From positions 44,140 to 108,139 of the forward strand of contig JBGQGB010000002.1 in NCBI GenBank assembly GCA_041497195.1: a stretch of 64,000 nucleotides of DNA. The letters are read 5' to 3'. The DNA is from Candidatus Doudnabacteria bacterium (GTDB lineage Bacteria; Patescibacteriota; Doudnabacteria; UBA920; 2-01-FULL-46-14). Position numbers and translations under genes: made by a program. Positions within the stretch are counted from its first letter, which is position 1, and each line of letters opens with the position of its first letter. Below the pieces are notes generated by a model that searched no databases, was not told the origin of the DNA, and worked only from the letters and a program-made list of their open reading frames with translations. Positions 3,541 through 61,410 of this stretch are shown one piece after another.

Positions 3541-4790
3541 TGACAAGACCGCTTTCCTACGACGTGGCAGTCATCGGCGGCGGCCCGGCTGGCATGATGG
3601 CAGCAGGGCGGGCCGCTGAACTGGGAGCCAGAGTGGTTTTGCTTGAGAAAAACGCCAAACTCGGCAAAAAGCTCCTGATTACGGGCGGCGGCCGCTGCAA
3701 TATCACCAATGCCGAACTCGACGTAAAAAAAATGGTGGCCAAGTACGGCCGGAAAGGAAAGGCCCTATTCGGCGCTTTTGCCCGTTTTGGCGTGGAAGAT
3801 ACTCTGCATTTTTTTGAGCAACGCAAACTGCCCATAAAAATCGAGGCGGAAAAAAGAGCCTTCCCTGTAAGCCAAAAAGCCGAAGATGTCTGGAAAGTAA
3901 TGGTTGACTATTTGAAACAGGGTCGCGTGGACGTCGTATACAATGCCGCGGTAACCGGCCTCGCCTCCGAGCTGGGAAAAATCACAGCCGTGAAACTCAG
4001 CAAGGGCGAAATCCGCGCCAAAAACTACATAGTCGCCACGGGCGGAAAATCGCGGCCCGAAACCGGATCCACTGGCGAAGGATTTTTGTGGATGCAGAGC
4101 CTCGGCCACACGGTAGAAGAGTCAGACCCGGCCCTGGTGCCCATAAAAATCAAAGAAAATTGGGTCAAAAAACTTTCCGGGGTGAGTTTTTCCCGCGCCA
4201 AGCTGACGGTTTTCCAGGACAAGAAGAAGCAAGACAGCGGCACCGGAAAAATTCTCCTGACTCATTTCGGCCTGAGCGGCCCCCTAACTCTCAATATGAG
4301 CAAAAATGTCGCCGAGCTGTATAAGTACGCCCCGGTTGATTTGGAATTGGACCTCTATCCGGATCTGGACGCGATGGCTCTGGATAAAAAAGTCCTGCAA
4401 CACATTGGCTCGTCTTTGAATAAAAAACTAAAAAACAATTTGGGGGCAATAGTTCCTCCAAAAATGATCAGTACTATTTTGGAACTCGCGGAAATAGATC
4501 CGGAAAAGGCGGGAAACGCGCTGACCAAAGGAGAACGATCAAAAATCGTAAAACTCATCAAAGCCTTGCCTATGAGCGTTGCCGGGTTTCTTGGGGTGGA
4601 AAAAGCTATTGTCACCTCTGGCGGGGTATCGCTCAAAGAAATAGATTTCAAAACCGTGCAATCCAAACTCTATACAAACCTATACTTAGCCGGCGACATC
4701 CTCAATTTTGACCGCCCCTCGGGCGGCTTCTCCCTGCAAATCTGCTGGACCAGTGGATTTTTGGCAGGAGAAAACAGCGCCAAAGGCTAA
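3540..4790 (+). CDS. NAD(P)/FAD-dependent oxidoreductase, HI0933/YhiN/BaiN-like flavoprotein
   Basis: N-terminal dinucleotide fold DVAVIGGGPAGMMAAGRAAELGARVVLLEK and the GGGRCNITN motif. Confidence 0.75.
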   Translation: MTRPLSYDVAVIGGGPAGMMAAGRAAELGARVVLLEKNAKLGKKLLITGGGRCNITNAELDVKKMVAKYGRKGKALFGAFARFGVEDTLHFFEQRKLPIKIEAEKRAFPVSQKAEDVWKVMVDYLKQGRVDVVYNAAVTGLASELGKITAVKLSKGEIRAKNYIVATGGKSRPETGSTGEGFLWMQSLGHTVEESDPALVPIKIKENWVKKLSGVSFSRAKLTVFQDKKKQDSGTGKILLTHFGLSGPLTLNMSKNVAELYKYAPVDLELDLYPDLDAMALDKKVLQHIGSSLNKKLKNNLGAIVPPKMISTILELAEIDPEKAGNALTKGERSKIVKLIKALPMSVAGFLGVEKAIVTSGGVSLKEIDFKTVQSKLYTNLYLAGDILNFDRPSGGFSLQICWTSGFLAGENSAKG

Positions 4791-4865
4791 ACTGAAAAGC
4801 AGAGGACGGCTCCGCGCTGGCACGCGCACGCTTATATTAAAGGAGATGAAAAAATCCCTTAATCA

Positions 4866-6050
4866 CTAATCTTTTAGTACTTCTTTCAGACCCTCGGCTA
4901 AAGAAGCGGTATTAGGTAGTGAATGACTGAGAAAACTGAGTCCTTCTCTCATGAGCTGATAATCGCGAGCTTTCATCAATTCATCTTTGCTGGAGAAATT
5001 TTCCAGAAGAGTTGCCCTATATTTCTCCATGGCTGAGCGAAGCTTGTCGCCTGACAGCATCGATAGGCTAATTGCGCCAAGTGGATCGGAGCGCATCAAG
5101 AGCCACACCTGTTCCTCCGACAAATTTGGGAAACTTGTAAGGTCAACCGCGGCTCCAAAATCAATAAAGCGAATATCACCCGATTTACTAACCATGGTGT
5201 GAGACTTGCCCAGGTCGTCGCGTAGCAGTTGGTCGTTAATCACAATATTGTGCTTATGTAGCTTTTTTATTCCTTCGCCAATTTGACGCCCTAAGTTTCG
5301 CATGAATTCGGGAGTGCAGATTTTCGGGTCAAGTTTGGAAATCAGGTTACCTTCAATGAATTCTTCAGTCAAATAGCGCTTGATAGATTCAAATTGTCGA
5401 GGCCCCACCTGCAATTCGTCGGCAAGTTTAGCGATTTCTTTTTCCCCGCTATTTTCAAGCGTTTTAACCGCGTAGGCTTGATCGGAAAAAGCTATTTTTA
5501 CTGCGATCTTCCGTCCTTGAGTTGGCAGGATAAACACCTCCGGCTGTTGCCCTTGACTAATGCGTTCCCAAATTATCGGAAAGAACCCAGCCATAGAATA
5601 CCTTTTGAGGTTTTCGTCGTTTTCTACTCGGTTCAGCAGCAGCTCGTCCACCTGCGTTTCTCCGGCTAGAGCCTCTCGGATGACATTGATCTCTTCATCT
5701 GTGTAAGTTTGGTGGGTAGGATTATCAGCAATTTCAACCTGTTTGTTACCTAAACGCAGCTGGGCTAAGTATTTTTGATATTGTTCCGGATAGCGCTCCT
5801 TCAATTGTTCAACTGGAAGAAGCAGGCTCGCTTCTCGTTCGTTTTTTGGGACAAGAGGTTCGCCTAAATGTTGCTCAGCGGAGTCTAGCTGAGCCTCTAG
5901 TTCTTCCTTGCTCTTTGGTCGAAAGCGACTATTTTCTGGGTTCATAGGTTGTAGCTTTTTGTCAGAAAATCTTTTTTGAGATTTGGCGCTAAATTTTTCC
6001 GCATAGAATTTATATTTAGGGGCTTTTCCAGCAGGCCTTTCTAAAGTCAT
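4866..6050 (-). CDS. Atypical protein-kinase-like-fold protein, possibly a pseudokinase, with a charged N-terminal region
   Basis: AVK (beta3 Lys), EFIEG hinge, LHKHNIVINDQ in place of the catalytic loop, and DFG in IRFIDFGAAV. No canonical HRD. Confidence 0.4.
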   Translation of the reverse strand: MTLERPAGKAPKYKFYAEKFSAKSQKRFSDKKLQPMNPENSRFRPKSKEELEAQLDSAEQHLGEPLVPKNEREASLLLPVEQLKERYPEQYQKYLAQLRLGNKQVEIADNPTHQTYTDEEINVIREALAGETQVDELLLNRVENDENLKRYSMAGFFPIIWERISQGQQPEVFILPTQGRKIAVKIAFSDQAYAVKTLENSGEKEIAKLADELQVGPRQFESIKRYLTEEFIEGNLISKLDPKICTPEFMRNLGRQIGEGIKKLHKHNIVINDQLLRDDLGKSHTMVSKSGDIRFIDFGAAVDLTSFPNLSEEQVWLLMRSDPLGAISLSMLSGDKLRSAMEKYRATLLENFSSKDELMKARDYQLMREGLSFLSHSLPNTASLAEGLKEVLKD

Positions 6051-6097
6051 TTTAACACACTTGGTCAGGGGTCAAAATGGTCCGGGCCGCAGCCGCC

Positions 6098-6126
6098 TTG
6101 ACACTAGTGGCAAAATTTAGTATTAT
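6098..6126 (+). promoter_or_regulatory. Near-consensus sigma70-type promoter TTGACA-N17-TATTAT
   Basis: TTGACA at 6098-6103, a 17-nt spacer, TATTAT at 6121-6126. A strong RBS GGAGGAG follows about 10 nt before the ATG at 6167. Confidence 0.6.
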
Positions 6127-6166
6127 GTGAAGTTCGCATCAAAATCCTGAGGAGGAGAAAAAAGAT

Positions 6167-6493
6167 ATGGCTACGCAGGGACTGGTCACAGTGCTGAAGG
6201 ATGGGAAAGTCCGGATGAAGATTGTCGCTGGCACTAACGGCAGCAAAGCTGCAGTGGTGGCTCGGGCTATCAAAGACCTGAGGCGCGTGCCTACTCTGAA
6301 GGAGGCTTACCAGTTGGCCGCAGAGCACAACTTCGGGACGCGGCAGGATCTCATCGTCATCAACCAGAAAAGGGCAAAATACGAAGGCAGCGAGCCGCTT
6401 CCGCCGCGCTACCGGAGCACGTTCAACTCGCCGGTTTTCAATCCGCGATGGAAATACGGTATCGCTGACCATGTCGAGGTCGTGAGACTCTAA
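6167..6493 (+). CDS. Hypothetical small protein (108 aa)
   Basis: Good promoter and RBS. No recognisable domain. Confidence 0.5.
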   Translation: MATQGLVTVLKDGKVRMKIVAGTNGSKAAVVARAIKDLRRVPTLKEAYQLAAEHNFGTRQDLIVINQKRAKYEGSEPLPPRYRSTFNSPVFNPRWKYGIADHVEVVRL

Positions 6494-6518
6494 CCCGACC
6501 GAGCCACCTGAAAAAACC

Positions 6519-6567
6519 GACCCGCCGAGGCCATCAGCCAAGGTGGGTCAATTTTTTTAGTATTTTT
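6519..6567. terminator. Putative bidirectional terminator hairpin (GACCCGCC...GGTGGGTC) flanked by A- and T-tracts
   Basis: 8-bp stem with one G-U pair, a 15-nt loop, then AATTTTTTT. It lies between convergent genes. Confidence 0.4.
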
Positions 6568-6617
6568 TATGGCAGTGTGCCCTGGGCTAGAACCAGCTAC
6601 AGTAAGGTTTTAGACTG

Positions 6618-7064
6618 CTATTTCTCGAGCATTTTTTTCAAAGGCTCCCAGTAGTAGGTTTTCCAGCCGCCGGTGATGTTTTTTGCATCACTCATGGGTA
6701 TCCCTTTTTGGCTGAACATCAGCTTTGTCCCGTTTTTGGTTTCTTTCAGGAGGTACGTGATAGTGGAGGAGTGACCGACTGGCCAGTTGGATGCGCGCCA
6801 GGACTGCACGATTTTTTTGTCCGGGATGAGCTCGAGGTTTTTGCCGCTGATATAGTCGCCATGCGCAGTGAAACTGCCGCCGACTATGCGGCTGATCTTG
6901 GCAGGAGAGCTAGTGAACTTGGCATGTTTTTTGCTATCCATCAGCGCTTCGTAAATCGCATGAGCACTTGCCCTGATCATCAGGCCTTGCTTGAGGTCTT
7001 TGGTTTTGAGCATGGGTTTTTGAGTCAATTTTGGAGAAGAGTCTTGGCTTTTATATTTTAGCAC
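6618..7064 (-). CDS. SRPBCC superfamily protein (AHSA1/Bet v1-like fold)
   Basis: Length and motif pattern (W...G...W) are consistent with Activator-of-Hsp90-ATPase-like SRPBCC proteins. Confidence 0.45.
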   Translation of the reverse strand: MLKYKSQDSSPKLTQKPMLKTKDLKQGLMIRASAHAIYEALMDSKKHAKFTSSPAKISRIVGGSFTAHGDYISGKNLELIPDKKIVQSWRASNWPVGHSSTITYLLKETKNGTKLMFSQKGIPMSDAKNITGGWKTYYWEPLKKMLEK

Positions 7065-7157
7065 ATTCCAAAAACAAAAACCCTTCCCCGAGATTTGGGG
7101 GAAGGGGTCTGTATCACTTTGATTTCCGGGTGAAAAAATATAAAAAAAGACGTGAAA

Positions 7158-7568
7158 CTATTTCCAAGTACCCAGGATGAGGCCGGCTGCTACCATAGTG
7201 AGGAGACTGTTGCCAGCTCCGAGCCAGAACAATTTCATTTTCCCGCCCCAGAGCGCTTGCCCCAACTGAATGGGGATCATGAAGCCGATCCAGGCAAATA
7301 GCGCGGTGATGACTGCGCCTGACAAGCTGGTAATATGGAGGTTGATGATGAATCGATCGAGCACGATAAAAGTCACGACCGAGGCGATGAACTGCCAGAC
7401 ATAAGTCATCATCATGGACTTTTTCATCTTTGCTTGCTCCTCCGAGCTCAATTTATCCATGCCCATGAGGGAGATATACATTTTGCCAAAAAGCGGGCCA
7501 AACCAGACAGAGCCGATAATCATGCTGGCGATCGCAGAGGCCAAAATCGCTAACCAATTAAGCTGCAT
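7158..7568 (-). CDS. DUF1761 family membrane protein (paralog of 1979..2410)
   Basis: Colinear similarity to 1979..2410 across the whole length. Confidence 0.55.
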   Translation of the reverse strand: MQLNWLAILASAIASMIIGSVWFGPLFGKMYISLMGMDKLSSEEQAKMKKSMMMTYVWQFIASVVTFIVLDRFIINLHITSLSGAVITALFAWIGFMIPIQLGQALWGGKMKLFWLGAGNSLLTMVAAGLILGTWK

Positions 7569-7698
7569 TTATATTTCCACCCCCTCTCAAAAGTTTAGTT
7601 TCTAATTTGCAGATTCACTCGCTATTATCATCATTTCTTGTTTGATATTCTTGGTTTTGAGCATATTTATTGAGCCAACGTTTAAAATTGTTAAAGGT

Positions 7699-8094
7699 TT
7701 ATAAAAAGTCCACGAGCTTTTCTAATTGAGGGACTTTCGGTAGTTGTTTAATTTCATGCTTACTGAAGAATTTCATATCAACACATTCGTCTGACGGTTT
7801 GAAATCGAGGCTGCTAAAGCTAACCTTGTAAAAAACCATAATTCTGCCCCTTCCCACTTGATCGATTGTGGGATAGACGATAAATGGTTGTTGCTCCAAG
7901 ACTTCACATTCGAGGCCGGTTTCTTCTAGACATTCTCTTTTCAAACTTTCTATAAATTCTTCACCTTTTTGAATTCTACCGCCAGGAGGTTCCCAAAGTC
8001 CGTCCTTTTGCTGCAGCATCATTAACTTATTTTCTTTGTCAAAAAACAAGCCTTTGACTGAAACTTGGAAGATATTGTCGTTGGTATTATCCAT
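7699..8094 (-). CDS. NUDIX hydrolase
   Basis: Nudix box GGRIQKGEEFIESLKRECLEETGL. The gene is AT-rich relative to its surroundings. Confidence 0.8.
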   Translation of the reverse strand: MDNTNDNIFQVSVKGLFFDKENKLMMLQQKDGLWEPPGGRIQKGEEFIESLKRECLEETGLECEVLEQQPFIVYPTIDQVGRGRIMVFYKVSFSSLDFKPSDECVDMKFFSKHEIKQLPKVPQLEKLVDFL

Positions 8095-8150
8095 AGATTT
8101 TGTTTTGGCAATAAATCAAAGCTTTGTAAACTTTAGTCTTGTTTGTTTTT

Positions 8151-8609
8151 TTATAAGTATTTATTTGCAGATAAAAAATCATAGACCTGGATGACTTCCT
8201 CGACTTTTATGAGCCCATAATTGAGAGTTTTCATAGAAAGATGCTCAAATTTTTCGCCGATTAGACTTTTTCCAATAGCATCGTCTGCCAATAAATAATG
8301 GGCAATTTGAATACGGTATTCATTCAATTGTTCGAGCAAAAAAATAAAATCTTTTCGAAGTCCAAGCTTTTTTAATTCAACTATTGAAGCTCCAAGAGTA
8401 AATTTCTCAGTTTTTTTCTCTGTGTAATGATATTTATTACGAAGTAGTTTTTTAAGTACAAATTCAACTAATTGAACCTTGCCCATAAACATACCATACT
8501 GTTCAAGAAAGCTAAGTTTGTCCAGAGGAACCAGCGTCTTAGAAATTTTTGTTATTAGTTCTTTAGGTTTGAGTTTTTTATTAAATCTTCTTTTTTTATC
8601 CTTGGCCAT
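8151..8609 (-). CDS. Hypothetical protein. It may be a HEPN-like fold (an Rx4H motif in EYRIQIAH). The true start may be the internal Met at 8492.
   Basis: Alpha-helical prediction with an R-x4-H motif in its C-terminal half. The 5' end overlaps the GIY-YIG gene by 55 nt. AT-rich. Confidence 0.35.
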   Translation of the reverse strand: MAKDKKRRFNKKLKPKELITKISKTLVPLDKLSFLEQYGMFMGKVQLVEFVLKKLLRNKYHYTEKKTEKFTLGASIVELKKLGLRKDFIFLLEQLNEYRIQIAHYLLADDAIGKSLIGEKFEHLSMKTLNYGLIKVEEVIQVYDFLSANKYL

Positions 8610-8809
8610 TTCTTAATCTCCACCTCCCTTTGCATTGCTTTTCTCAGGGCCCTAAATTTTTCCGTATAAATTATCTTTCCGCCACCGTGAGTTCTGACAT
8701 AGATTGATCCTTTGCCTGCATTGTGGCGCTTTTCCCGAGCTGCCAGGTCATTGGTACTGCCGCAATATAAGGTGCCATCTTTGCAGCGGAGAATGTAGAA
8801 GTAGTGCAT
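8555..8809 (-). CDS. GIY-YIG nuclease family small protein
   Basis: YFYILRCKDGTLYCGSTNDLAAREKRH matches the GIY-(x10)-YIG, Arg and His-containing core. Confidence 0.75.
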   Translation of the reverse strand: MHYFYILRCKDGTLYCGSTNDLAAREKRHNAGKGSIYVRTHGGGKIIYTEKFRALRKAMQREVEIKKWPRIKKEDLIKNSNLKN

Positions 8810-8822
8810 TTGGTTTTAAATT

Positions 8823-8897
8823 TGGCAGCCCTACAGGGAATCGAACCCTGATTTAATGGCTGAGAACCATTCGTCCTGACCATTAGACGATAGGGCC
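8823..8897 (-). tRNA. tRNA-Glu (anticodon CUC)
   Basis: Hand-folded cloverleaf. Acceptor GGCCCTA/TAGGGCT with G73 and CCA, U8, D-arm GTCT/GGAC, anticodon stem AATGG/CCATT with loop TTCTCAG, T-arm CAGGG-TTCGATT-CCCTG. Confidence 0.8.
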
Positions 8898-8899
8898 GC

Positions 8900-8923
8900 G
8901 GCGGCTTGGCGATAGCCAAGCCG
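8900..8923. other. Perfect 10-bp hairpin GCGGCTTGGC-GATA-GCCAAGCCGC lying 2 nt from the 5' end of the tRNA, with no U-tract
   Basis: Seen directly. Function unknown; it could be a processing or insulating element. Confidence 0.4.
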
Positions 8924-9052
8924 CTAAGAAACTGGCTTAATTATACTGAAAAAAACGATAGAAAACAATTGCCGGATTTTGCCGCGGCGGTTTGATTTGA
9001 CCGGGGTTTTGTTGTATCATGAGACCCGATGATCATCAGTCAAGGAGGAAGT

Positions 9053-9475
9053 ATGGATCAGACCACACAGGGCCAAGAACTGCCCCAGATTTCTGCGCAA
9101 GAACTTGCGCGCAGACACGAATCCATCCGTTTTGTCGGAAAGTATCTGGTCAAGGCCGGCAGGAACACGTCTGGGACGCTTCGGTATTTGGAAACGCGCC
9201 CGCCTGAAGACGGTTTCTGGGACATCAGATCCACAGAGCCTGCCAACGATCTGGAACCTCTGGCAACAATTACTACCCGGCATCCGGTGCGATGGAAGAC
9301 TGGAATGTTCGATCCCACGATCGGAGAATATCTCTCCCAGATTCCAGAGGAACTGGTGGAGCAAGTGGCAGCCGTGGGATACGGCAGCGACAATCTGCTC
9401 AAAGACGGCGACTTTCACATGATCAGCACGCATTTGTATAAATACAAAACAACTCCGCCGCCGAGAGCGGCATAA
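9053..9475 (+). CDS. Hypothetical protein
   Basis: The ORF has RBS AAGGAGGAAGT just upstream of ATG 9053. An upstream TTGATT-N17-TATCAT candidate promoter sits at about 8992-9020. Confidence 0.5.
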   Translation: MDQTTQGQELPQISAQELARRHESIRFVGKYLVKAGRNTSGTLRYLETRPPEDGFWDIRSTEPANDLEPLATITTRHPVRWKTGMFDPTIGEYLSQIPEELVEQVAAVGYGSDNLLKDGDFHMISTHLYKYKTTPPPRAA

Positions 9476-9577
9476 ATTGTGTCAGAAGTACGCAACGGCT
9501 CTGCCCGGGTTTTTCCCCAGGCAGAGCCGATTTTTTTGAAATATGGTATAATCAATCAAGCGAATTCCGATAAATTG

Positions 9578-10837
9578 ATGAAACCAAAAGTAAAAATAAA
9601 GACTTCCAAAACTCTCAAATTTCCCGCCGGCTTTCTCTGGGGAGCCGCCACTTCGTCCTACCAGGTGGAGGGCGGCATCAGCAACAACGACTGGGCCACG
9701 ACCAGGCGCGAGCCGCCAGCCGGGCTCGCGTGCGACCACTATCACCGCTATGAGGAGGATTTTCGGATAGCCAAAAAGCTTCATCACAACGCGCACCGCC
9801 TGTCCCTGGAGTGGAGCCGGATCGAGCCTGAGCGCGACGTCTGGGATGAAAACGAAATCCATCATTATTTCCACGTCCTGGAAAATTTGAAGCACCATGG
9901 CTTCACCACTTTCGTGACACTCCAGCATCTGACTCTGCCCGCGTGGTTTTCTGAGTCCGGCGGGATGGCGAACCAGAAAAATATCCAGGACTATGGGCAG
10001 TATGTCGCCAAAATCTGCCAAACCCTGGGCCAGTCCATTGATTTTTGGGTGACCATCAACGAACCGTCGATGCACGCCCTCATGGGCTATGGTCAAGGGA
10101 TGTGGCCGCCATTTCGGAAGAGCCGGGTCTCGCAACTGACGGTCTATCGCAATCTCCTCAATGCCCACAACGCCGCCTATGACATTATCCATGCTTATTA
10201 CCCGCACGCCCAGGTCGGGTTTGCCAACGGCATCGCCTACAGTGAGCCGGCGGGCCCGCGAAGTTTTATGGACAACCTAGTCAGCAATGTCGCGAATTGG
10301 GCCAGCATTGGTTATCCCTACACTCGGACCAAAAACGATTTCTTGGGAGTGAATTATTATTTCCACAACGTTTATCAGTTTCGGCATCTCTGGGTCAGAA
10401 AAATCGCCAAACCAGCGCGGGAGCGGCAGACAGACAAAGGCTGGGAAATATATCCGAATGGGCTGTATGAAGTTTTGCAAAAACTCGCCAAGTACAACAA
10501 ACCGATCTATGTCACCGAAAACGGCATTGCTGATGGGAGAGATCAGTACAGAGCGGAGTTTATACTGTCGCATCTGCGGGAACTGCGCCGGGCGATCGCA
10601 AACGGCGTGCCGGTATGGGGATACTTTTATTGGTCGCTTCTCGACAACTACGAGTGGCCGGTGCGCCGGGAGATCGAGAAAACAGGCTACGAGATGAAGT
10701 TTGGCCTGGTGGCAGTGGATTTTGAGCATGGACTGAGGCGGACGGTACGGCCGAGTGCCAAAATGTACGCGCAGATTTGCAAAACGAATGCTATCCCTGC
10801 GACTGTTTCGGGCGGTCGCCGAAAGGAGAGAGGATAA
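9578..10837 (+). CDS. Glycoside hydrolase family 1 beta-glucosidase
   Basis: GH1 signatures FLWGAATSSYQVEGG, the acid/base motif WVTINEP, and the nucleophile motif YVTENG. Confidence 0.85.
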   Translation: MKPKVKIKTSKTLKFPAGFLWGAATSSYQVEGGISNNDWATTRREPPAGLACDHYHRYEEDFRIAKKLHHNAHRLSLEWSRIEPERDVWDENEIHHYFHVLENLKHHGFTTFVTLQHLTLPAWFSESGGMANQKNIQDYGQYVAKICQTLGQSIDFWVTINEPSMHALMGYGQGMWPPFRKSRVSQLTVYRNLLNAHNAAYDIIHAYYPHAQVGFANGIAYSEPAGPRSFMDNLVSNVANWASIGYPYTRTKNDFLGVNYYFHNVYQFRHLWVRKIAKPARERQTDKGWEIYPNGLYEVLQKLAKYNKPIYVTENGIADGRDQYRAEFILSHLRELRRAIANGVPVWGYFYWSLLDNYEWPVRREIEKTGYEMKFGLVAVDFEHGLRRTVRPSAKMYAQICKTNAIPATVSGGRRKERG

Positions 10838-10839
10838 GT

Positions 10840-11142
10840 ATGCCCAGTAATACAACTTCCAGTTTGTTCTTTTATGTGTATGTTTTGGAAAGTCAAAAAG
10901 ATGGCAATAGGTATATCGGCTACACGTCCAATTTGAAACGGAGACTAAAAGAACATTCTGATGGCAGTTCCTTTGCGACTAAATACAGAAGGCCGTTCAA
11001 ACTAATATATTTTGAGGGATGCTTGGACGAACAAGATGCCAAGCGTAGAGAGAGATATTTAAAAACCACTCAAGGAAGAAGGTTTTTGGGTTTAAGATTA
11101 ATTGAGTACAAGCGGCAGGGAACGCTTGGCTCTGGAAGTTGA
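10840..11142 (+). CDS. GIY-YIG nuclease family small protein
   Basis: FFYVYVLESQKDGNRYIGYTSNLKRRLKEH matches the GIY-YIG core. AT-rich insert between the GH1 gene and the transporter gene. Confidence 0.7.
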   Translation: MPSNTTSSLFFYVYVLESQKDGNRYIGYTSNLKRRLKEHSDGSSFATKYRRPFKLIYFEGCLDEQDAKRRERYLKTTQGRRFLGLRLIEYKRQGTLGSGS

Positions 11143-11152
11143 TATACCAAGG

Positions 11153-12043
11153 ATGCTGTTTGTTTGGATTGCCATCGGCGCCTATTTCCTGTTCGCGGTC
11201 AACGGCGTCATCGACAAATTTTTACTAAGCAAAGTCGTCCGGCACCCGGTCGCCTATGCTTTTTATATTGGCATCACCGGCCCGTTGACTTGGGTGCTCG
11301 CCCCGTTTGGACTCAAATTTTTATCAATACCTGACCTGGCCATCGCCATCGCGGGGGGGGCGGCATTCGTCGGCGGGCTGACTTTTCTCTACATCGCCAC
11401 GCTGAAGACGACCATCTCGCGCCTGCTGCCGATCGAGGGGGGATTGGTCCCGTTTTTCACCCTGATTCTGGCTTATTTCATTCTCGGCGAGCGACTCTCG
11501 ACCATACAGGGATTTGCTTTTGCTTTTTTGGTGGCGGGCGCAGTGCTCATCTCTATCAAGAAAGACAAACAAGGATACCATCCCGCCGCGCTTCTCAACG
11601 CCGTTTTTGCCGCTTTCCTTTTTGCCCTGTCGTTTACGCTCACCAAATATATATTTGATAGAACGAATTTCGTCTCTGGTCTCATCTGGACCCGGCTCGG
11701 CTTCCTGGCCGTGTCCCTGGCATTCCTCATTCCGCGGCGCTCCCGGCGGTATATTTTCGAAGCGCCCAAAGAGGCCTCGCCGGCCAATAAACTTTTGTAC
11801 TACGGTGCCAGACTCTCCGGCGGCTTGGCCGGACTGATGCAAAACTATGCCATCTCCATCGGCAGCGTGATTTTGGTCAACGCCCTCCAGGGAAGTCAGT
11901 ACGCGATACTGCTGGTGATGACCACCATCCTCTCTAAATATCACCCGAAAATTCTCAAAGAAAAAATCAGCGCCAGTATTTTGACGCAAAAAATCGCGGC
12001 CATCGTCCTCATTACCGGGGGATTAGTATTACTCACCCTCTAA
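11153..12043 (+). CDS. EamA/DMT-superfamily-like 10-TM permease
   Basis: About ten hydrophobic helices arranged as two 5-TM halves. Confidence 0.5.
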   Translation: MLFVWIAIGAYFLFAVNGVIDKFLLSKVVRHPVAYAFYIGITGPLTWVLAPFGLKFLSIPDLAIAIAGGAAFVGGLTFLYIATLKTTISRLLPIEGGLVPFFTLILAYFILGERLSTIQGFAFAFLVAGAVLISIKKDKQGYHPAALLNAVFAAFLFALSFTLTKYIFDRTNFVSGLIWTRLGFLAVSLAFLIPRRSRRYIFEAPKEASPANKLLYYGARLSGGLAGLMQNYAISIGSVILVNALQGSQYAILLVMTTILSKYHPKILKEKISASILTQKIAAIVLITGGLVLLTL

Positions 12044-25574: not shown

Positions 25575-25862
25575 ATGGGTGAGACATCAAACGCAGATTT
25601 TAGACAACTTGTACCGGAGCAGAAACTAGGCAGAGGGCCTTTCAGTCAGCTCCAGGGTGAGATAAATGATACTTCGATTGAATTTTTGCAGAAAGAGGAT
25701 TTGTTATCGCAGGCTAGAGTATTCTATCGGAGCGTTCCGGAGGATATTCGTGAAGCTAAAATTATGGAAGATTTGAAAAGTATATGTGGGATTTTGGACA
25801 GTGTTGGCGACAAGGAAAAGGCCCAATATTTATACGATTTGTTTGGTTTCGAAAAAGTTTGA
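25575..25862 (+). CDS. Hypothetical protein
   Basis: 95-aa ORF. Confidence 0.4.
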   Translation: MGETSNADFRQLVPEQKLGRGPFSQLQGEINDTSIEFLQKEDLLSQARVFYRSVPEDIREAKIMEDLKSICGILDSVGDKEKAQYLYDLFGFEKV

Positions 25863-32968: not shown

Positions 32969-33876
32969 AGATTTGGGTGTCAGGCAGCATCGCGCGAGAT
33001 TTGATAATGGATTTTCCGGGGCGGTTTGCCGAGCACATTGATCCGCGGAAGCTTCATATATTGAATTTAAGCTTCGCCGTGAAAGCTTTGCGGGAAAATA
33101 TCGGCGGTACGGCGGCGAACATTGCTTATAATTTGACTTTCTTAGGCGAGCGGCCGGAAATTTTAGGCAGTATCGGGTTTGACCAGCAGGGCCTGCGGGA
33201 CTATTTGCGAACTTACAAAGTTGGCATTCGCGGGTTGAATGTATCCAAACGCTTCCGCACTGCCGCCGCTTATATCATCACTGACCGGGATGACAATCAG
33301 CTGGCCGGTTTTTATGCCGGTGCGATGCTTGAGCCCCTGAAGTGGCTTCCGCCAGCCAGACTCGGCGATTGGGCCATTGTGGCGGCGGAACACACTGCCA
33401 ACATGGTCCGTCTCGCCCGGTTTTATCAAAAGAGAGGAGTAAATTTTATTTTTGATCCCGGGCAGCAAATCACGGCTTTGACCGACCTCCAGCTATCCGC
33501 GGGAATTGCGGGCGGGAAAATTTTGATTGGCAATGACTATGAGATTGGTTTGGCGCAAAAGCGAGTGCGAGTGCGTTGTCCGGTGGTGGTGAGGACTTTC
33601 GGACCCAAAGGTTCGGAGATCGTAGTGGCTGGGAAAAAGAAAATTCGCGTTGGTATCGCCAAGCCCCGCCGCGTCGTTGATCCGACCGGGGCCGGAGACG
33701 CGTACCGGGCGGGCTTTCTAAAAGGGCTCCTAATAGGGTATAATTTAAAAACTTGCGGACAAATTGCGGCAACAGTGGCTTCGTACGCCGTGGAAGAGTA
33801 CGGTACCCAAAATCACAAATTTACCTGGTTGCAAATCAAGCGCAGACACAATTTAAATTTTAAAGACAAAATTTGA
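32965..33876 (+). CDS. PfkB-family carbohydrate/nucleoside kinase
   Basis: GG motif near the N-terminus and the DPTGAGDAYRAGF anion-hole motif. Its ATG overlaps the HIT stop. Confidence 0.75.
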   Translation: MKIWVSGSIARDLIMDFPGRFAEHIDPRKLHILNLSFAVKALRENIGGTAANIAYNLTFLGERPEILGSIGFDQQGLRDYLRTYKVGIRGLNVSKRFRTAAAYIITDRDDNQLAGFYAGAMLEPLKWLPPARLGDWAIVAAEHTANMVRLARFYQKRGVNFIFDPGQQITALTDLQLSAGIAGGKILIGNDYEIGLAQKRVRVRCPVVVRTFGPKGSEIVVAGKKKIRVGIAKPRRVVDPTGAGDAYRAGFLKGLLIGYNLKTCGQIAATVASYAVEEYGTQNHKFTWLQIKRRHNLNFKDKI

Positions 33877-34346
33877 ATAACCCAGAAATCACAAAGGACA
33901 AATATTGTTTGATTTGTGAGAGAATAGACTTGATAAAGAAGGGAGAGAACCCGTATTTTGTTAAAGAACTTCAGAGTGGTTATGTTGTGCTAGGAGATTA
34001 TCAGTATTATAAAGGGTACGCTTTATTTTTGTGTAAAAAACATGTATCTGAGCTTCACATGCTCGAAAAAGATTTTCGTAGTAAATACATTGAAAAGATG
34101 GCTAGTGTTGGTGAGGCCGTGTTTAATGCTTTCAAACCGGCCAAATTAAATTACGAGCTTTTGGGGAATACTGACAGACTTCACATTCATTGGCATTTTT
34201 TTCCCAGATACCAAGACGATCTTGCTCCGCTTCATCCAGTCTGGGAGACACCCAAAAGCATCCGCGAAGCTGAGACTATGCGGCCTAGCCCAGAGCAATT
34301 ATCTAAACTTAAAAAGCAGTTGCTTGATTTTTTTGAGAAAAACTAA
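33873..34346 (+). CDS. HIT-like (Ap4A-hydrolase-like) protein, AT-rich
   Basis: CLICE and HIHWHFFPR (an HxHxH-variant). Confidence 0.55.
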
Positions 34347-38504: not shown

Positions 38505-38867
38505 GTGAAAGTAGAGGATTTAAAAGTTTACAGAAAACTGTTTACACTATCTCTGAAGGTGCATACTTTGACGTTGATTTTCCCGAAGTTCGAGATTCAT
38601 GAGCTTGGCTCACAAATGCGTCGGTCGTCCAATTCAGCACCAGCAAATCTTGCCGAGGGTTTTGATAACAAACATACCAATATTTATCTGGAAAGTATTA
38701 GCCGGGCTCAGGGCGAAATAAGAGAAACTGTCCATCATTTGAATATTGCAAGTCAAAAAAATTATCTATTGGAATTGGAACTCAAAAAATTCCTTAGCGA
38801 ATATGAAGAATGCTCCAAAATGCTTTATGGCCTTGAAAAATCTTTGAATCGCAACTCCAAAAAATGA
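38505..38867 (+). CDS. Four-helix-bundle protein (23S rRNA intervening-sequence protein family), AT-rich insert between rmlD and rmlA
   Basis: MKVEDLKVYRKLF...FPKFEIHELGSQMRRSSNSAPANLAEG is the family signature. Confidence 0.7.
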   Translation: MKVEDLKVYRKLFTLSLKVHTLTLIFPKFEIHELGSQMRRSSNSAPANLAEGFDNKHTNIYLESISRAQGEIRETVHHLNIASQKNYLLELELKKFLSEYEECSKMLYGLEKSLNRNSKK

Positions 38868-53840: not shown

Positions 53841-54093
53841 GGGATGATTACTTCAGCCCGATTCCCATCAGGCACCCCACCGAGCACGAACCGAGGATAA
53901 AGCCTCGCTTTTGGCCAGATAATTTCATATTCTTGACTCTAGTATAGCCTCCATGATACTATCTACACAGTAAGGGAGTGCTAAGAAATGGCGAGTTTAT
54001 TAGTCTGAATTGCTGTGAATCCCTTATTTGGAAATCGCTAAACCCACCGCCCTCTGGTTCGCCGGACGGCGGTTTTTAGTCTATAATTGTTAT

Positions 54094-54249
54094 ATGAAAA
54101 CGGCTATAGTTTTTATTGATGGAAATAATCTATATCACCGTATTAAAAGTGTGGCCGAGTTTTATTTGAGAGAAACGGGTAAAGAATACGGAACAATTAA
54201 TTTTGATTTCAAGAACTTTGGGATGGTATTTCCGTGTGACACCCAATAG
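54094..54249 (+). pseudogene. Remnant of a NYN/LabA-like domain gene (only the N-terminal 51 codons are intact) in an AT-rich patch
   Basis: MKTAIVFIDGNNLYHRIKSV matches the NYN N-terminal motif. The ORF stops at 54249. A further out-of-frame fragment follows at 54203..54406. Confidence 0.4.
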
Positions 54250-61370: not shown

Positions 61371-61410
61371 TGCGGCCGTCCCCCCCCCCGGGGGGGGGGA
61401 CGGCTTTTTG
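61371..61410 (+). terminator. Very strong intrinsic terminator: GCCGT-C10 / G10-ACGGC perfect palindrome followed by TTTTT
   Basis: Seen directly. It contains a C10/G10 homopolymer pair. Confidence 0.8.

Follow-up and report, generated by a model that had tools for sequence, protein, structure and literature searches.

T4 SegB is a free-standing GIY-YIG homing endonuclease encoded in a tRNA gene cluster (PMC2330249), and the rRNA genes of Candidate Phyla Radiation (CPR) bacteria carry non-intron insertions that encode GIY-YIG proteins (PMC11270868). Both can be compared with a 1.2-kb AT-rich tract in a 64,000-nucleotide stretch of a Candidatus Doudnabacteria genome (contig JBGQGB010000002.1, positions 44,140–108,139; the whole of this stretch is called the window below). 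In this tract a tRNA-Glu gene (8823–8897, minus strand) is followed on its 3' side by three minus-strand genes encoding a GIY-YIG nuclease of 84 amino acids (aa), a HEPN-like protein of 152 aa and a NUDIX hydrolase of 131 aa. Like SegB, the window GIY-YIG gene is next to a tRNA gene and could plausibly spread as a selfish gene through breaks in conserved tRNA DNA; unlike SegB, its product has 84 aa and a catalytic domain only, without a DNA-binding domain, and its host is cellular. The small GIY-YIG genes at tRNA genes, to which it would belong, share with the CPR rRNA insertions the kind of gene, a structural RNA as target, the same broad lineage and the lack of a recognisable intron, but here the targets are tRNA genes, and in the related cassettes the intact tRNA is rebuilt by duplicating its 5' half, its 3' end or its first 6–7 nt.

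For the other two genes and for the tract as a whole the nearest parallels are different. The 152-aa protein resembles the HepT toxins of MntA–HepT (5yep, 6m6w, 7bxo) and the PF18735 family in being small (~130–150 aa) and, by prediction, all-helical, and in carrying, on a long helix, an Rx4H motif at about residue 100; in most members of its family the Arg of this motif is followed by Asn. That family likewise occurs in mobile or defence islands, and its best profile and fold matches, though weak and sub-threshold, are to these proteins; unlike MntA–HepT, it is accompanied neither by an MNT nucleotidyltransferase nor by any other conserved partner. The hydrolase agrees with minimal MutT-type NUDIX enzymes in its length of 131 aa, its intact Nudix box and a Pfam score above cutoff, but no NCBIfam equivalog reaches cutoff and its codon composition is foreign to the host. 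Integrase islands at tRNA 3' ends share with the tract the position past the tRNA 3' end, the atypical composition and the accessory cargo, and islands of this kind contain homologues of the 152-aa gene (L009, L014 and L016; loci from other genomes are given as L numbers throughout). The tract differs from them in having no integrase and no tRNA repeat, in being only 1.2 kb long and in ending, on its far side, in a truncated gene and not an att site.

The reading that we consider moderately probable is that the tract is a mosaic acquired islet and not a co-adapted three-gene system. Independently evolving pieces would have collected 3' of tRNA-Glu, at a hot spot close to the tRNA. The 84-aa GIY-YIG gene would be a selfish gene expressed from the tRNA promoter, as in related tRNA mini-insertions (probably of Patescibacteria). 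The 152-aa gene, the most foreign of the pieces, may encode a stand-alone toxin or abortive-infection-type effector that travels as cargo of integrative islands, and the NUDIX gene probably came, along with the first part of an AHSA1 gene, from a relative of lower GC; the truncated remnant of that AHSA1 gene marks the edge of the tract. A preliminary description of this DNA had proposed one compact three-gene module, perhaps for defence. That proposal was not supported by the comparison with other genomes: at 21 other loci the HEPN-like gene lacks any conserved neighbour and is never beside a gene for a GIY-YIG or NUDIX protein, and the trio did not recur at these loci or in four NUDIX contexts. 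Against the system models of PADLOC-DB v2 the 152-aa and GIY-YIG proteins gave no match and the NUDIX protein a generic one only (PDC-S07).

The trio lies where the preliminary description had put it, past the 3' end of tRNA-Glu on the minus strand and below its surroundings in GC, and all the features were recovered at the coordinates given, apart from a hairpin that was one base off. The tRNA-Glu gene (anticodon CUC, CTC in the DNA; encoded 3' CCA; found by ARAGORN and by Rfam RF00005 at 61.2 bits) is the single tRNA gene of the window. The ATG of the GIY-YIG gene (8555–8809; PF01541, E 3.4e-16, 59.7 bits, cutoff 22.6) is 13 nt past the CCA. The open reading frame (ORF) of the 152-aa protein (8151–8609) overlaps the 3' end of the GIY-YIG gene by 55 nt and has its own ribosome-binding site, the Shine–Dalgarno-like GGAGGTGG at 8620–8627; a gap of 56 nt separates it from the gene for the MutT-type NUDIX hydrolase (7699–8094; PF00293, E 1.1e-15, 58.2 bits, cutoff 21.1). 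A scan of the locus found no terminator-like site between the three genes. In a 400-nt profile GC falls to 0.30–0.38 across 7400–8800, compared with about 0.50–0.55 around it, and a change-point fit together with 120-nt and 400-nt profiles places the AT-rich core (not assigned to a strand) at 7556–8680, with a GC of 0.335 against 0.513 in the 1.5-kb flanks. The composition of each gene was compared with that of 74 window ORFs (mean GC 0.509, sd 0.052; mean GC at third codon positions, GC3, 0.588). The 152-aa gene has the lowest GC of the window (GC 0.309, GC3 0.263, z −3.8 for GC), followed within the trio by the NUDIX gene (GC 0.384, GC3 0.405, z −2.4 for GC) and the GIY-YIG gene (GC 0.421, GC3 0.488, z −1.7 for GC and −1.1 for GC3). 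The foreign composition proposed for the tract is thus borne out by the GC profile, by the change-point fit and by codon usage. The strongly AT-rich core starts not at the tRNA but within the last third of the GIY-YIG gene, the 5' two-thirds of which are close to the host in composition. Because the GC3 values of the trio differ and the core starts within the GIY-YIG gene, the three genes are not compositionally uniform.

The GIY-YIG protein consists of the catalytic domain only: the PF01541 match spans residues 1–71 of 84, the catalytic motifs can be read (FYI...LYCG, the Arg, His and Asn in AREKRHN and the Glu in REVEIK), and no separate DNA-binding domain is present, since 84 aa leave no room for one. 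It scores 15.4 bits against TIGR01453 (cutoff 56) and has no PADLOC match. Among the loci listed by a metagenome scan for related tRNA-Glu genes (described below), small GIY-YIG ORFs are, after dereplication, nine in number, and eight of these have a tRNA gene less than 100 nt away, as against 21% of other ORFs (Fisher p 4e-5); the tRNA-adjacent ORFs are co-oriented with the tRNA, and the ninth is 566 nt away. The preliminary description had counted the GIY-YIG gene as part of a HEPN island, but the adjacency of GIY-YIG and tRNA genes proved to be a separate and recurrent phenomenon. The insertions concerned are ~300–450 bp long, lie in or at genes for tRNA-Glu, -Val, -Phe, -Gly and -Leu, and are flanked by duplicated tRNA segments (coordinates below are given with the tRNA on the plus strand). 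Where the insertion is at the anticodon (L034 6661–7055, L057 3381–3785, L075 4280–4707; three different tRNA sequences), a perfect copy of tRNA-Glu nt 1–35/36, which stops in the anticodon, precedes a hairpin, the ORF and a complete tRNA, in that order. Where it is at the 3' end (L078 415–842, L094 1824–2232), the ORF lies just past the tRNA and is followed by a 14–21-nt repeat of the tRNA 3' end. At the 5' end the duplication comprises the first 6–7 nt of the tRNA, and in L061 (5260–5645) a cassette bounded by terminal inverted repeats of ~20 nt lies precisely at the 5' end of tRNA-Val, with a 6-nt duplication; the orthologous tRNA-Val site of L036 (1949–2022) is empty, and L036 carries an 80%-identical cassette at tRNA-Phe (9997–10382). 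An intron origin of the tRNA-nested GIY-YIG genes was rejected on an Rfam scan, which gave tRNAs only and neither a group I nor a group II intron around them. We found no report of tRNA-nested GIY-YIG elements in the library of papers searched.

From these arrangements we put forward, tentatively, that genes of ~85 codons for catalytic-domain-only GIY-YIG proteins of this lineage may be autonomous mini-elements of ~300–450 bp which target tRNA genes at the 5' end, the anticodon or the 3' end, duplicate the segment that they interrupt so that the tRNA is whole again, and rely on the tRNA promoter for their expression. The window gene would be a member, and the breaks made by such elements would turn tRNA flanks into hot spots that capture cargo such as the HEPN-like gene. 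The window gene has the same position and orientation as the cassettes, and the site at which a distal tRNA repeat would be expected is taken by the HEPN-like gene.

The 152-aa protein had been called HEPN-like on its Rx4H motif. It has no match in Pfam, NCBIfam, PHROGs or PADLOC, and a word-indexed search of 5.8 billion proteins returned three relatives only, at ~50% identity. An exhaustive profile search placed it in a family of 192 representative clusters (50% identity), 144 of them at E 1e-10 or better. In a 60-sequence alignment of the family Q46 and R99 are invariant and E36, E49, L52, K53, L56, G73, H104, L129 and E137 are at least 90% conserved. The family motif at R99 is mostly RNxxAH, the window protein having R99-I-Q-I-A-H104 (RIQIAH), and the most conserved block, GKxQxxExxLK, is in helix 2. 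An AlphaFold2 model built from the family alignment (pLDDT 94, pTM 0.86) predicts an all-helical bundle with four long helices at 15–31, 34–60, 86–117 and 120–148 and two short helices inserted at 64–81. Individual family members gave weak Pfam matches only, chiefly to families named as HEPN: RiboL-PSP (6), Apea (3), MAE_28990 (2), HepT-like (2) and Csm6 HEPN (1), and the family consensus matched PF18735 HEPN_RiboL-PSP over residues 8–137 (E 2e-4, 21.8 bits, cutoff 28.4). The weak PADLOC matches of 60 members (E 2e-4 or worse) were mostly of HEPN type (Cas13-ApeA, Csx1, Cas13b, CARF_HEPN). In a Foldseek search of the PDB with the model the top match was 1wwp (probability 0.84), which we take to be a HEPN-domain protein, and the HepT toxins 6m6w, 7bxo and 5yep were among the best natural matches, none of them significant. 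Sequence searches of solved structures with the profile, the consensus and one member gave nothing useful (a single match to FtbP, 9j1l, E 1.1), a viral structure library gave no match at E 0.001 (best E 0.26), and no Pfam domain was found in the extensions of the long family members (211–317 aa). The HEPN-like call therefore stands as far as the conservation of Rx4H across the family and the lack of a competing homology are concerned, whereas the matches themselves stay below their thresholds. The weak matches converge on HEPN; no confident non-HEPN homology was found, nor was the trio found conserved beside tRNA-Glu with native codon usage. We think it likely that the protein represents a new, rare and previously unannotated family in the HEPN superfamily. 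Because of this placement it may well be a metal-independent endoribonuclease.

The genomic contexts of the family were taken from 21 other loci (22 counting the window), with crude ORF calls. The family is present in 16 species-representative genomes of scattered phyla and in two IMG/VR viral contigs, its hosts including Bradyrhizobium, Undibacter, Bacteriovoracaceae, Saccharibacteria, Thiobacillus, Azovibrio, Chlorobiales, Oceanospirillum and Cellvibrio. In almost every locus the GC of the family gene is below that of the locus, and in 18 of 20 loci the gene also has a lower GC3 than the ORFs around it (median −0.09, Wilcoxon p 8.5e-4). An all-against-all BLAST of 154 neighbour proteins revealed no conserved partner gene, returning two trivial pairs only, and a GIY-YIG or NUDIX neighbour was found at none of the 21 other loci. 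A nucleotidyltransferase was absent from beside the gene in the window and from the immediate neighbours scanned at the 21 loci; one in L005 is 3 kb away on the other strand. The relatives are typical cargo of mobile or defence islands, and their identifiable neighbours include tyrosine integrases in L009 (two copies) and L026, HipA and DUF4160 in L016, a Schlafen AlbA_2 protein in L014 and an ImmA/IrrE (M78) peptidase in L013. In L005 a complete Type II Bub operon (8089–10438; Multi_ubiq BubA, E2–E1 BubBD and BubE), of a type recognised from bioRxiv 10.1101/2024.11.21.623953, is followed after 36 nt by a 145-aa homologue of the HEPN-like protein, with a serine recombinase, an ORF6N protein and a nucleotidyltransferase upstream; to go by this single instance, a Bub system may have the HEPN-like gene as an accessory or effector gene. 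At 5 of the 22 loci the family gene is within ~2 kb on the 3' side of a tRNA gene (Lys, Ala, Met, Arg and Glu; rough binomial p 0.004 if 5% is expected). The drop in GC comes exactly at the tRNA in L014 and L016, L009 combines its two integrases with a tRNA-Arg, and no repeats were found within the 6-kb flanks of the tRNA-adjacent loci. For the HEPN-like gene, then, the earlier suggestion of island cargo at tRNA 3' ends holds, both in the tRNA association and in the integrase, toxin and defence neighbours. In two loci (L008 116–448 and L020 6402–6878) a second small helical ORF of HEPN-like appearance lies beside the family gene, that of L008 weakly matching PF05168 (E 0.036), and HEPN genes may be paired in some of the family loci.

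The NUDIX protein has an intact Nudix box (G39-RIQKG-E45-EFIESLK-R53-E54-C-L-E57-E58-T-G60-L61). Its 88 homologues are mostly 131 aa long and 55–76% identical, and the sources of a few give the names Patescibacteria or Daviesbacteria. The JGI annotation is 8-oxo-dGTP pyrophosphatase; no NCBIfam equivalog reaches its cutoff. Four homologue contexts (L027 and L029–L031) contain ATP synthase, RF-1-like, two-component, MFS, PMT_2 and other ordinary genes in variable arrangements, and in none of the four does a GIY-YIG gene, a HEPN-like gene or a tRNA gene accompany the homologue. The PADLOC candidate PDC-S07 matches at E 1.4e-10, with 38.9 bits as against 58.2 bits for the generic Pfam NUDIX model. 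The defence role that had been considered for this gene is not borne out by homologues of the same length in such ordinary settings, and the enzyme is, to judge by the names of its homologues, a conserved one of the Patescibacteria lineage, not a defence-island gene. Its GC3 is 0.405 here and 0.56 in the closest homologue, which belongs to a genome of equal GC (50%), and this suggests that the window copy came from a lower-GC relative.

The preliminary description had also pointed to tRNA 3' ends as classic integration sites, but no direct repeat of the tRNA and no integrase accompany the tract. A search for a direct repeat of the tRNA 3' end near 6550–7700 had been suggested: the terminal 26-mer has no direct-repeat match even when 3 mismatches are allowed, aligning the tRNA locally with 6000–8815 gave a best score of 20 (shuffle mean 19.6, sd 2.0) and so no copy beyond chance, and no recombinase or integrase domain was found among the called genes within ~10 kb. 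The longest direct repeat in 4000–12000 (D1) is instead between 7603–7664 and 6952–7013 (62 nt, 71% identity). The latter segment is the start of the resident AHSA1/SRPBCC gene and both copies begin at an ATG, so that 7602–7664 (minus strand) reads as an AT-rich 5' remnant of an AHSA1/SRPBCC gene, 20 codons translated as MLKTKNIKQEMMIIASESAN and a stop codon. This stub lies between the NUDIX gene and a DUF1761 gene. We read it as a putative rearrangement scar at the distal edge, where AT-rich DNA would once have run into an AHSA1-type gene that was truncated at ~7600. The DUF1761 gene (7158–7568) and the resident AHSA1/SRPBCC gene (6618–7064) lie beyond the AT-rich tract, as had been described; the other DUF1761 paralogue is at 1979–2410.

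The only syntenic contig, L042 (GC 0.42), has genes for ROK, GH42-like, EamA and GH1 proteins and a divergent tRNA-Glu in the order of the window. It lacks the 148-aa ORF that lies between GH1 and the tRNA in the window (GH1 starts ~120 nt from the tRNA there) and the second GIY-YIG gene that lies here between GH1 and EamA, and no ORF starts in its 56 nt from tRNA-Glu to the contig end. From these differences it appears that the surroundings of the window tRNA-Glu have taken up several small insertions. Comparison with the strains L001–L004 was uninformative on presence or absence, as they are 99.98–100% identical to the window in DNA, and the apparent lack of the second GIY-YIG gene in L002 was a difference in gene calling only. 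The 148-aa ORF (9029–9475, plus strand) is an orphan, its sole match in the search of 5.8 billion proteins being itself, and an attempt to establish synteny through it failed. The second minimal GIY-YIG gene (10876–11142, plus strand, 88 aa) is 35% identical to the first. It occupies the space between GH1 and EamA, where no tRNA gene is close by, and of the two copies it has the stronger similarity to the tRNA-nested cassettes (E down to 1e-21). It looks like an insertion, GH1 and EamA being only ~22 nt apart in L042.

Several observations weigh against the reading that we prefer. The genes of the trio follow one another closely on the same strand (13-nt gap, 55-nt overlap, 56-nt gap), no terminator separates them, and they are probably co-transcribed and could still interact. 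The window GIY-YIG protein is no more than a distant relative of the tRNA-nested cassettes (E 1e-4 to 1e-8), and no tRNA-derived repeat flanks its gene. The HEPN matches of the 152-aa protein are all below threshold (Pfam 21.8 against 28.4 bits; Foldseek best E 0.5), its fold rests on prediction, it has Ile after R99 where the family usually has Asn, and no antitoxin or regulator partner is evident, which is unusual for a toxic HEPN. The family sample is small (21 loci) and its gene calls are crude, and L042 is distant and ends 56 nt past the tRNA, so that it cannot show whether it lacks the AT-rich tract. The packing would be expected if the three genes were one defence or abortive-infection module, with a HEPN RNase as effector and NUDIX and GIY-YIG partners, acquired as a unit at the tRNA; that all three are co-oriented and below host GC, that the NUDIX protein weakly matches PDC-S07 and that one 152-aa homologue directly follows a Bub operon would also fit. 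We regard such a module as highly improbable: none of the 21 other HEPN-like loci has a GIY-YIG, NUDIX or any conserved neighbour, none of the four NUDIX contexts has the other two genes, GC3 differs clearly among the trio and the AT-rich core starts inside the GIY-YIG gene, and the PDC-S07 match scores below the generic NUDIX one. Very improbable, too, is that these are native housekeeping genes which owe their low GC to amino-acid composition, small size or local mutation bias, without any transfer. Other low-GC small genes are scattered over the window (25575–25862, 33873–34346, 38505–38867 and 54028–54249), NUDIX homologues elsewhere are also slightly under the GC of their genomes, and neither an integrase nor an att repeat is present; but amino-acid content alone cannot account for the GC3 of the 152-aa gene, which is 0.26 where the window has 0.59. 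The HEPN-like family is, moreover, patchy over phyla, with three ~50% relatives in the search of 5.8 billion proteins and low GC nearly everywhere, the closest NUDIX homologue has a GC3 of 0.56 against 0.405 in a genome of equal GC, and the AT-rich AHSA1 pseudo-start would be a rearrangement scar.

Transfer could instead have been a single event, in which the whole tract (GIY-YIG, HEPN-like and NUDIX genes and the AHSA1 start) came from a lower-GC relative through repair, with co-conversion, of a GIY-YIG-made break at the tRNA, so that the genes would be linked physically and not functionally. T4 SegB causes DNA of the tRNA region around it to be inherited (PMC2330249), tRNA genes are the insertion sites of related GIY-YIG cassettes, L042 with its GC of 0.42 indicates that lower-GC relatives with the GH1/tRNA-Glu layout exist, and the tract ends in a fragment of a type of gene present in the host. 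A single donor is nevertheless hard to reconcile with GC3 values of 0.49, 0.26 and 0.41 and a host-like 5' part of the GIY-YIG gene; the AHSA1 remnant is just 71% identical to the resident copy, with the DUF1761 gene between them, and no donor-like arrangement was found in the NUDIX contexts examined. We therefore judge one such event unlikely. The role given to the 152-aa protein can be disputed separately, as it could be a non-catalytic helical regulator, antitoxin or adaptor in which the Arg and His serve binding, and many HEPN-fold proteins are indeed non-catalytic. Its HEPN similarities all lie below threshold, the lack of an antitoxin partner would leave a toxic activity unexplained, and the most conserved block of the family is GKxQxxExxLK in helix 2, not RNxxAH alone. 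Against this, R99 is invariant and H104 at least 90% conserved at exactly the spacing of the HEPN active site, the typical Asn follows the Arg in most members, and the weak matches from Pfam, PADLOC and PDB folds point mostly to catalytic HEPN RNases; a non-catalytic role seems to us rather doubtful.

If the 152-aa protein is placed correctly, a branch of HEPN proteins has been left unannotated that comprises ~190 clusters, shares a conserved motif and can be modelled with confidence. Since its genes travel alone in islands and no antitoxin is visible, the family would offer a simple candidate for studying how a stand-alone HEPN protein is kept harmless. The locus also illustrates that the adjacency of 'defence-flavoured' domains is not proof of a system, each gene here having its own evolutionary behaviour. 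GIY-YIG genes nested in tRNA genes with duplication of tRNA segments would extend the invasion of CPR rRNA genes to tRNA genes, and would explain how foreign DNA gathers at tRNA flanks of these small genomes with no integrase involved; this side result may matter more than the tract itself.

On the 5' side of the tRNA the preliminary description had noted a perfect 10-bp hairpin with no U-tract at 8900–8923; the stem and the lack of a U-tract are as described, and the coordinates are one base off, the actual position found in a hairpin search being 8901–8924 (minus strand, 4-nt loop). The sequence of the hairpin is GCGGCTTGGC-gata-GCCAAGCCGC; 3 nt separate it from the 5' end of the mature tRNA, and it is probably in the pre-tRNA leader. 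It occurs once in the window (0 expected by chance), and among 62 tRNA-Glu upstream regions (median −3.2 kcal/mol) none is more stable than this one, at −21.1 kcal/mol; it is not conserved upstream of related tRNA-Glu genes. A repeated element was rejected as an explanation because the hairpin is unique in the window, and a terminator because it has no U-tract and no gene converges on it. Further upstream (8940–8968, minus strand) a promoter-like TTGTTT (8963–8968) and TATAAT (8940–8945) with a 17-nt spacer were read by eye and would constitute a putative promoter of the tRNA; a consensus promoter scan did not list this site, the first hexamer matching at 3 of 6 positions only. A metagenome scan for tRNA-Glu genes with the D-arm and T-arm of this tRNA gave at least 80 loci, and among the matches listed the closest tRNAs agree with it at 66 of 75 positions. 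The window tRNA-Glu encodes its 3' CCA (8823–8825), which most of the 80 listed relatives (L032–L111) do not.

Elsewhere in the window, the four scattered low-GC ORFs are all on the plus strand, isolated amid genes of host composition (GC 0.37–0.41, z about −2 to −2.6). The ORF at 38505–38867 belongs to the 23S_rRNA_IVP family (E 8e-26) and that at 33873–34346 has a HIT domain, the other two being without a match, and the genome seems to be peppered with AT-rich single-gene insertions. At 61375–61404 there is a perfect palindrome, GCCGTC10G10ACGGC, in which ten C are followed by ten G; this unusual homopolymer pair could be slippage-prone or an assembly oddity. The product of 4866–6050 (minus strand, 394 aa; GC 0.445, GC3 0.43) has a weak protein-kinase core (Pfam E 2.4e-5, below cutoff) and weakly resembles both PD-T4-6, a defence kinase in PADLOC (E 4e-6), and Bud32 models.

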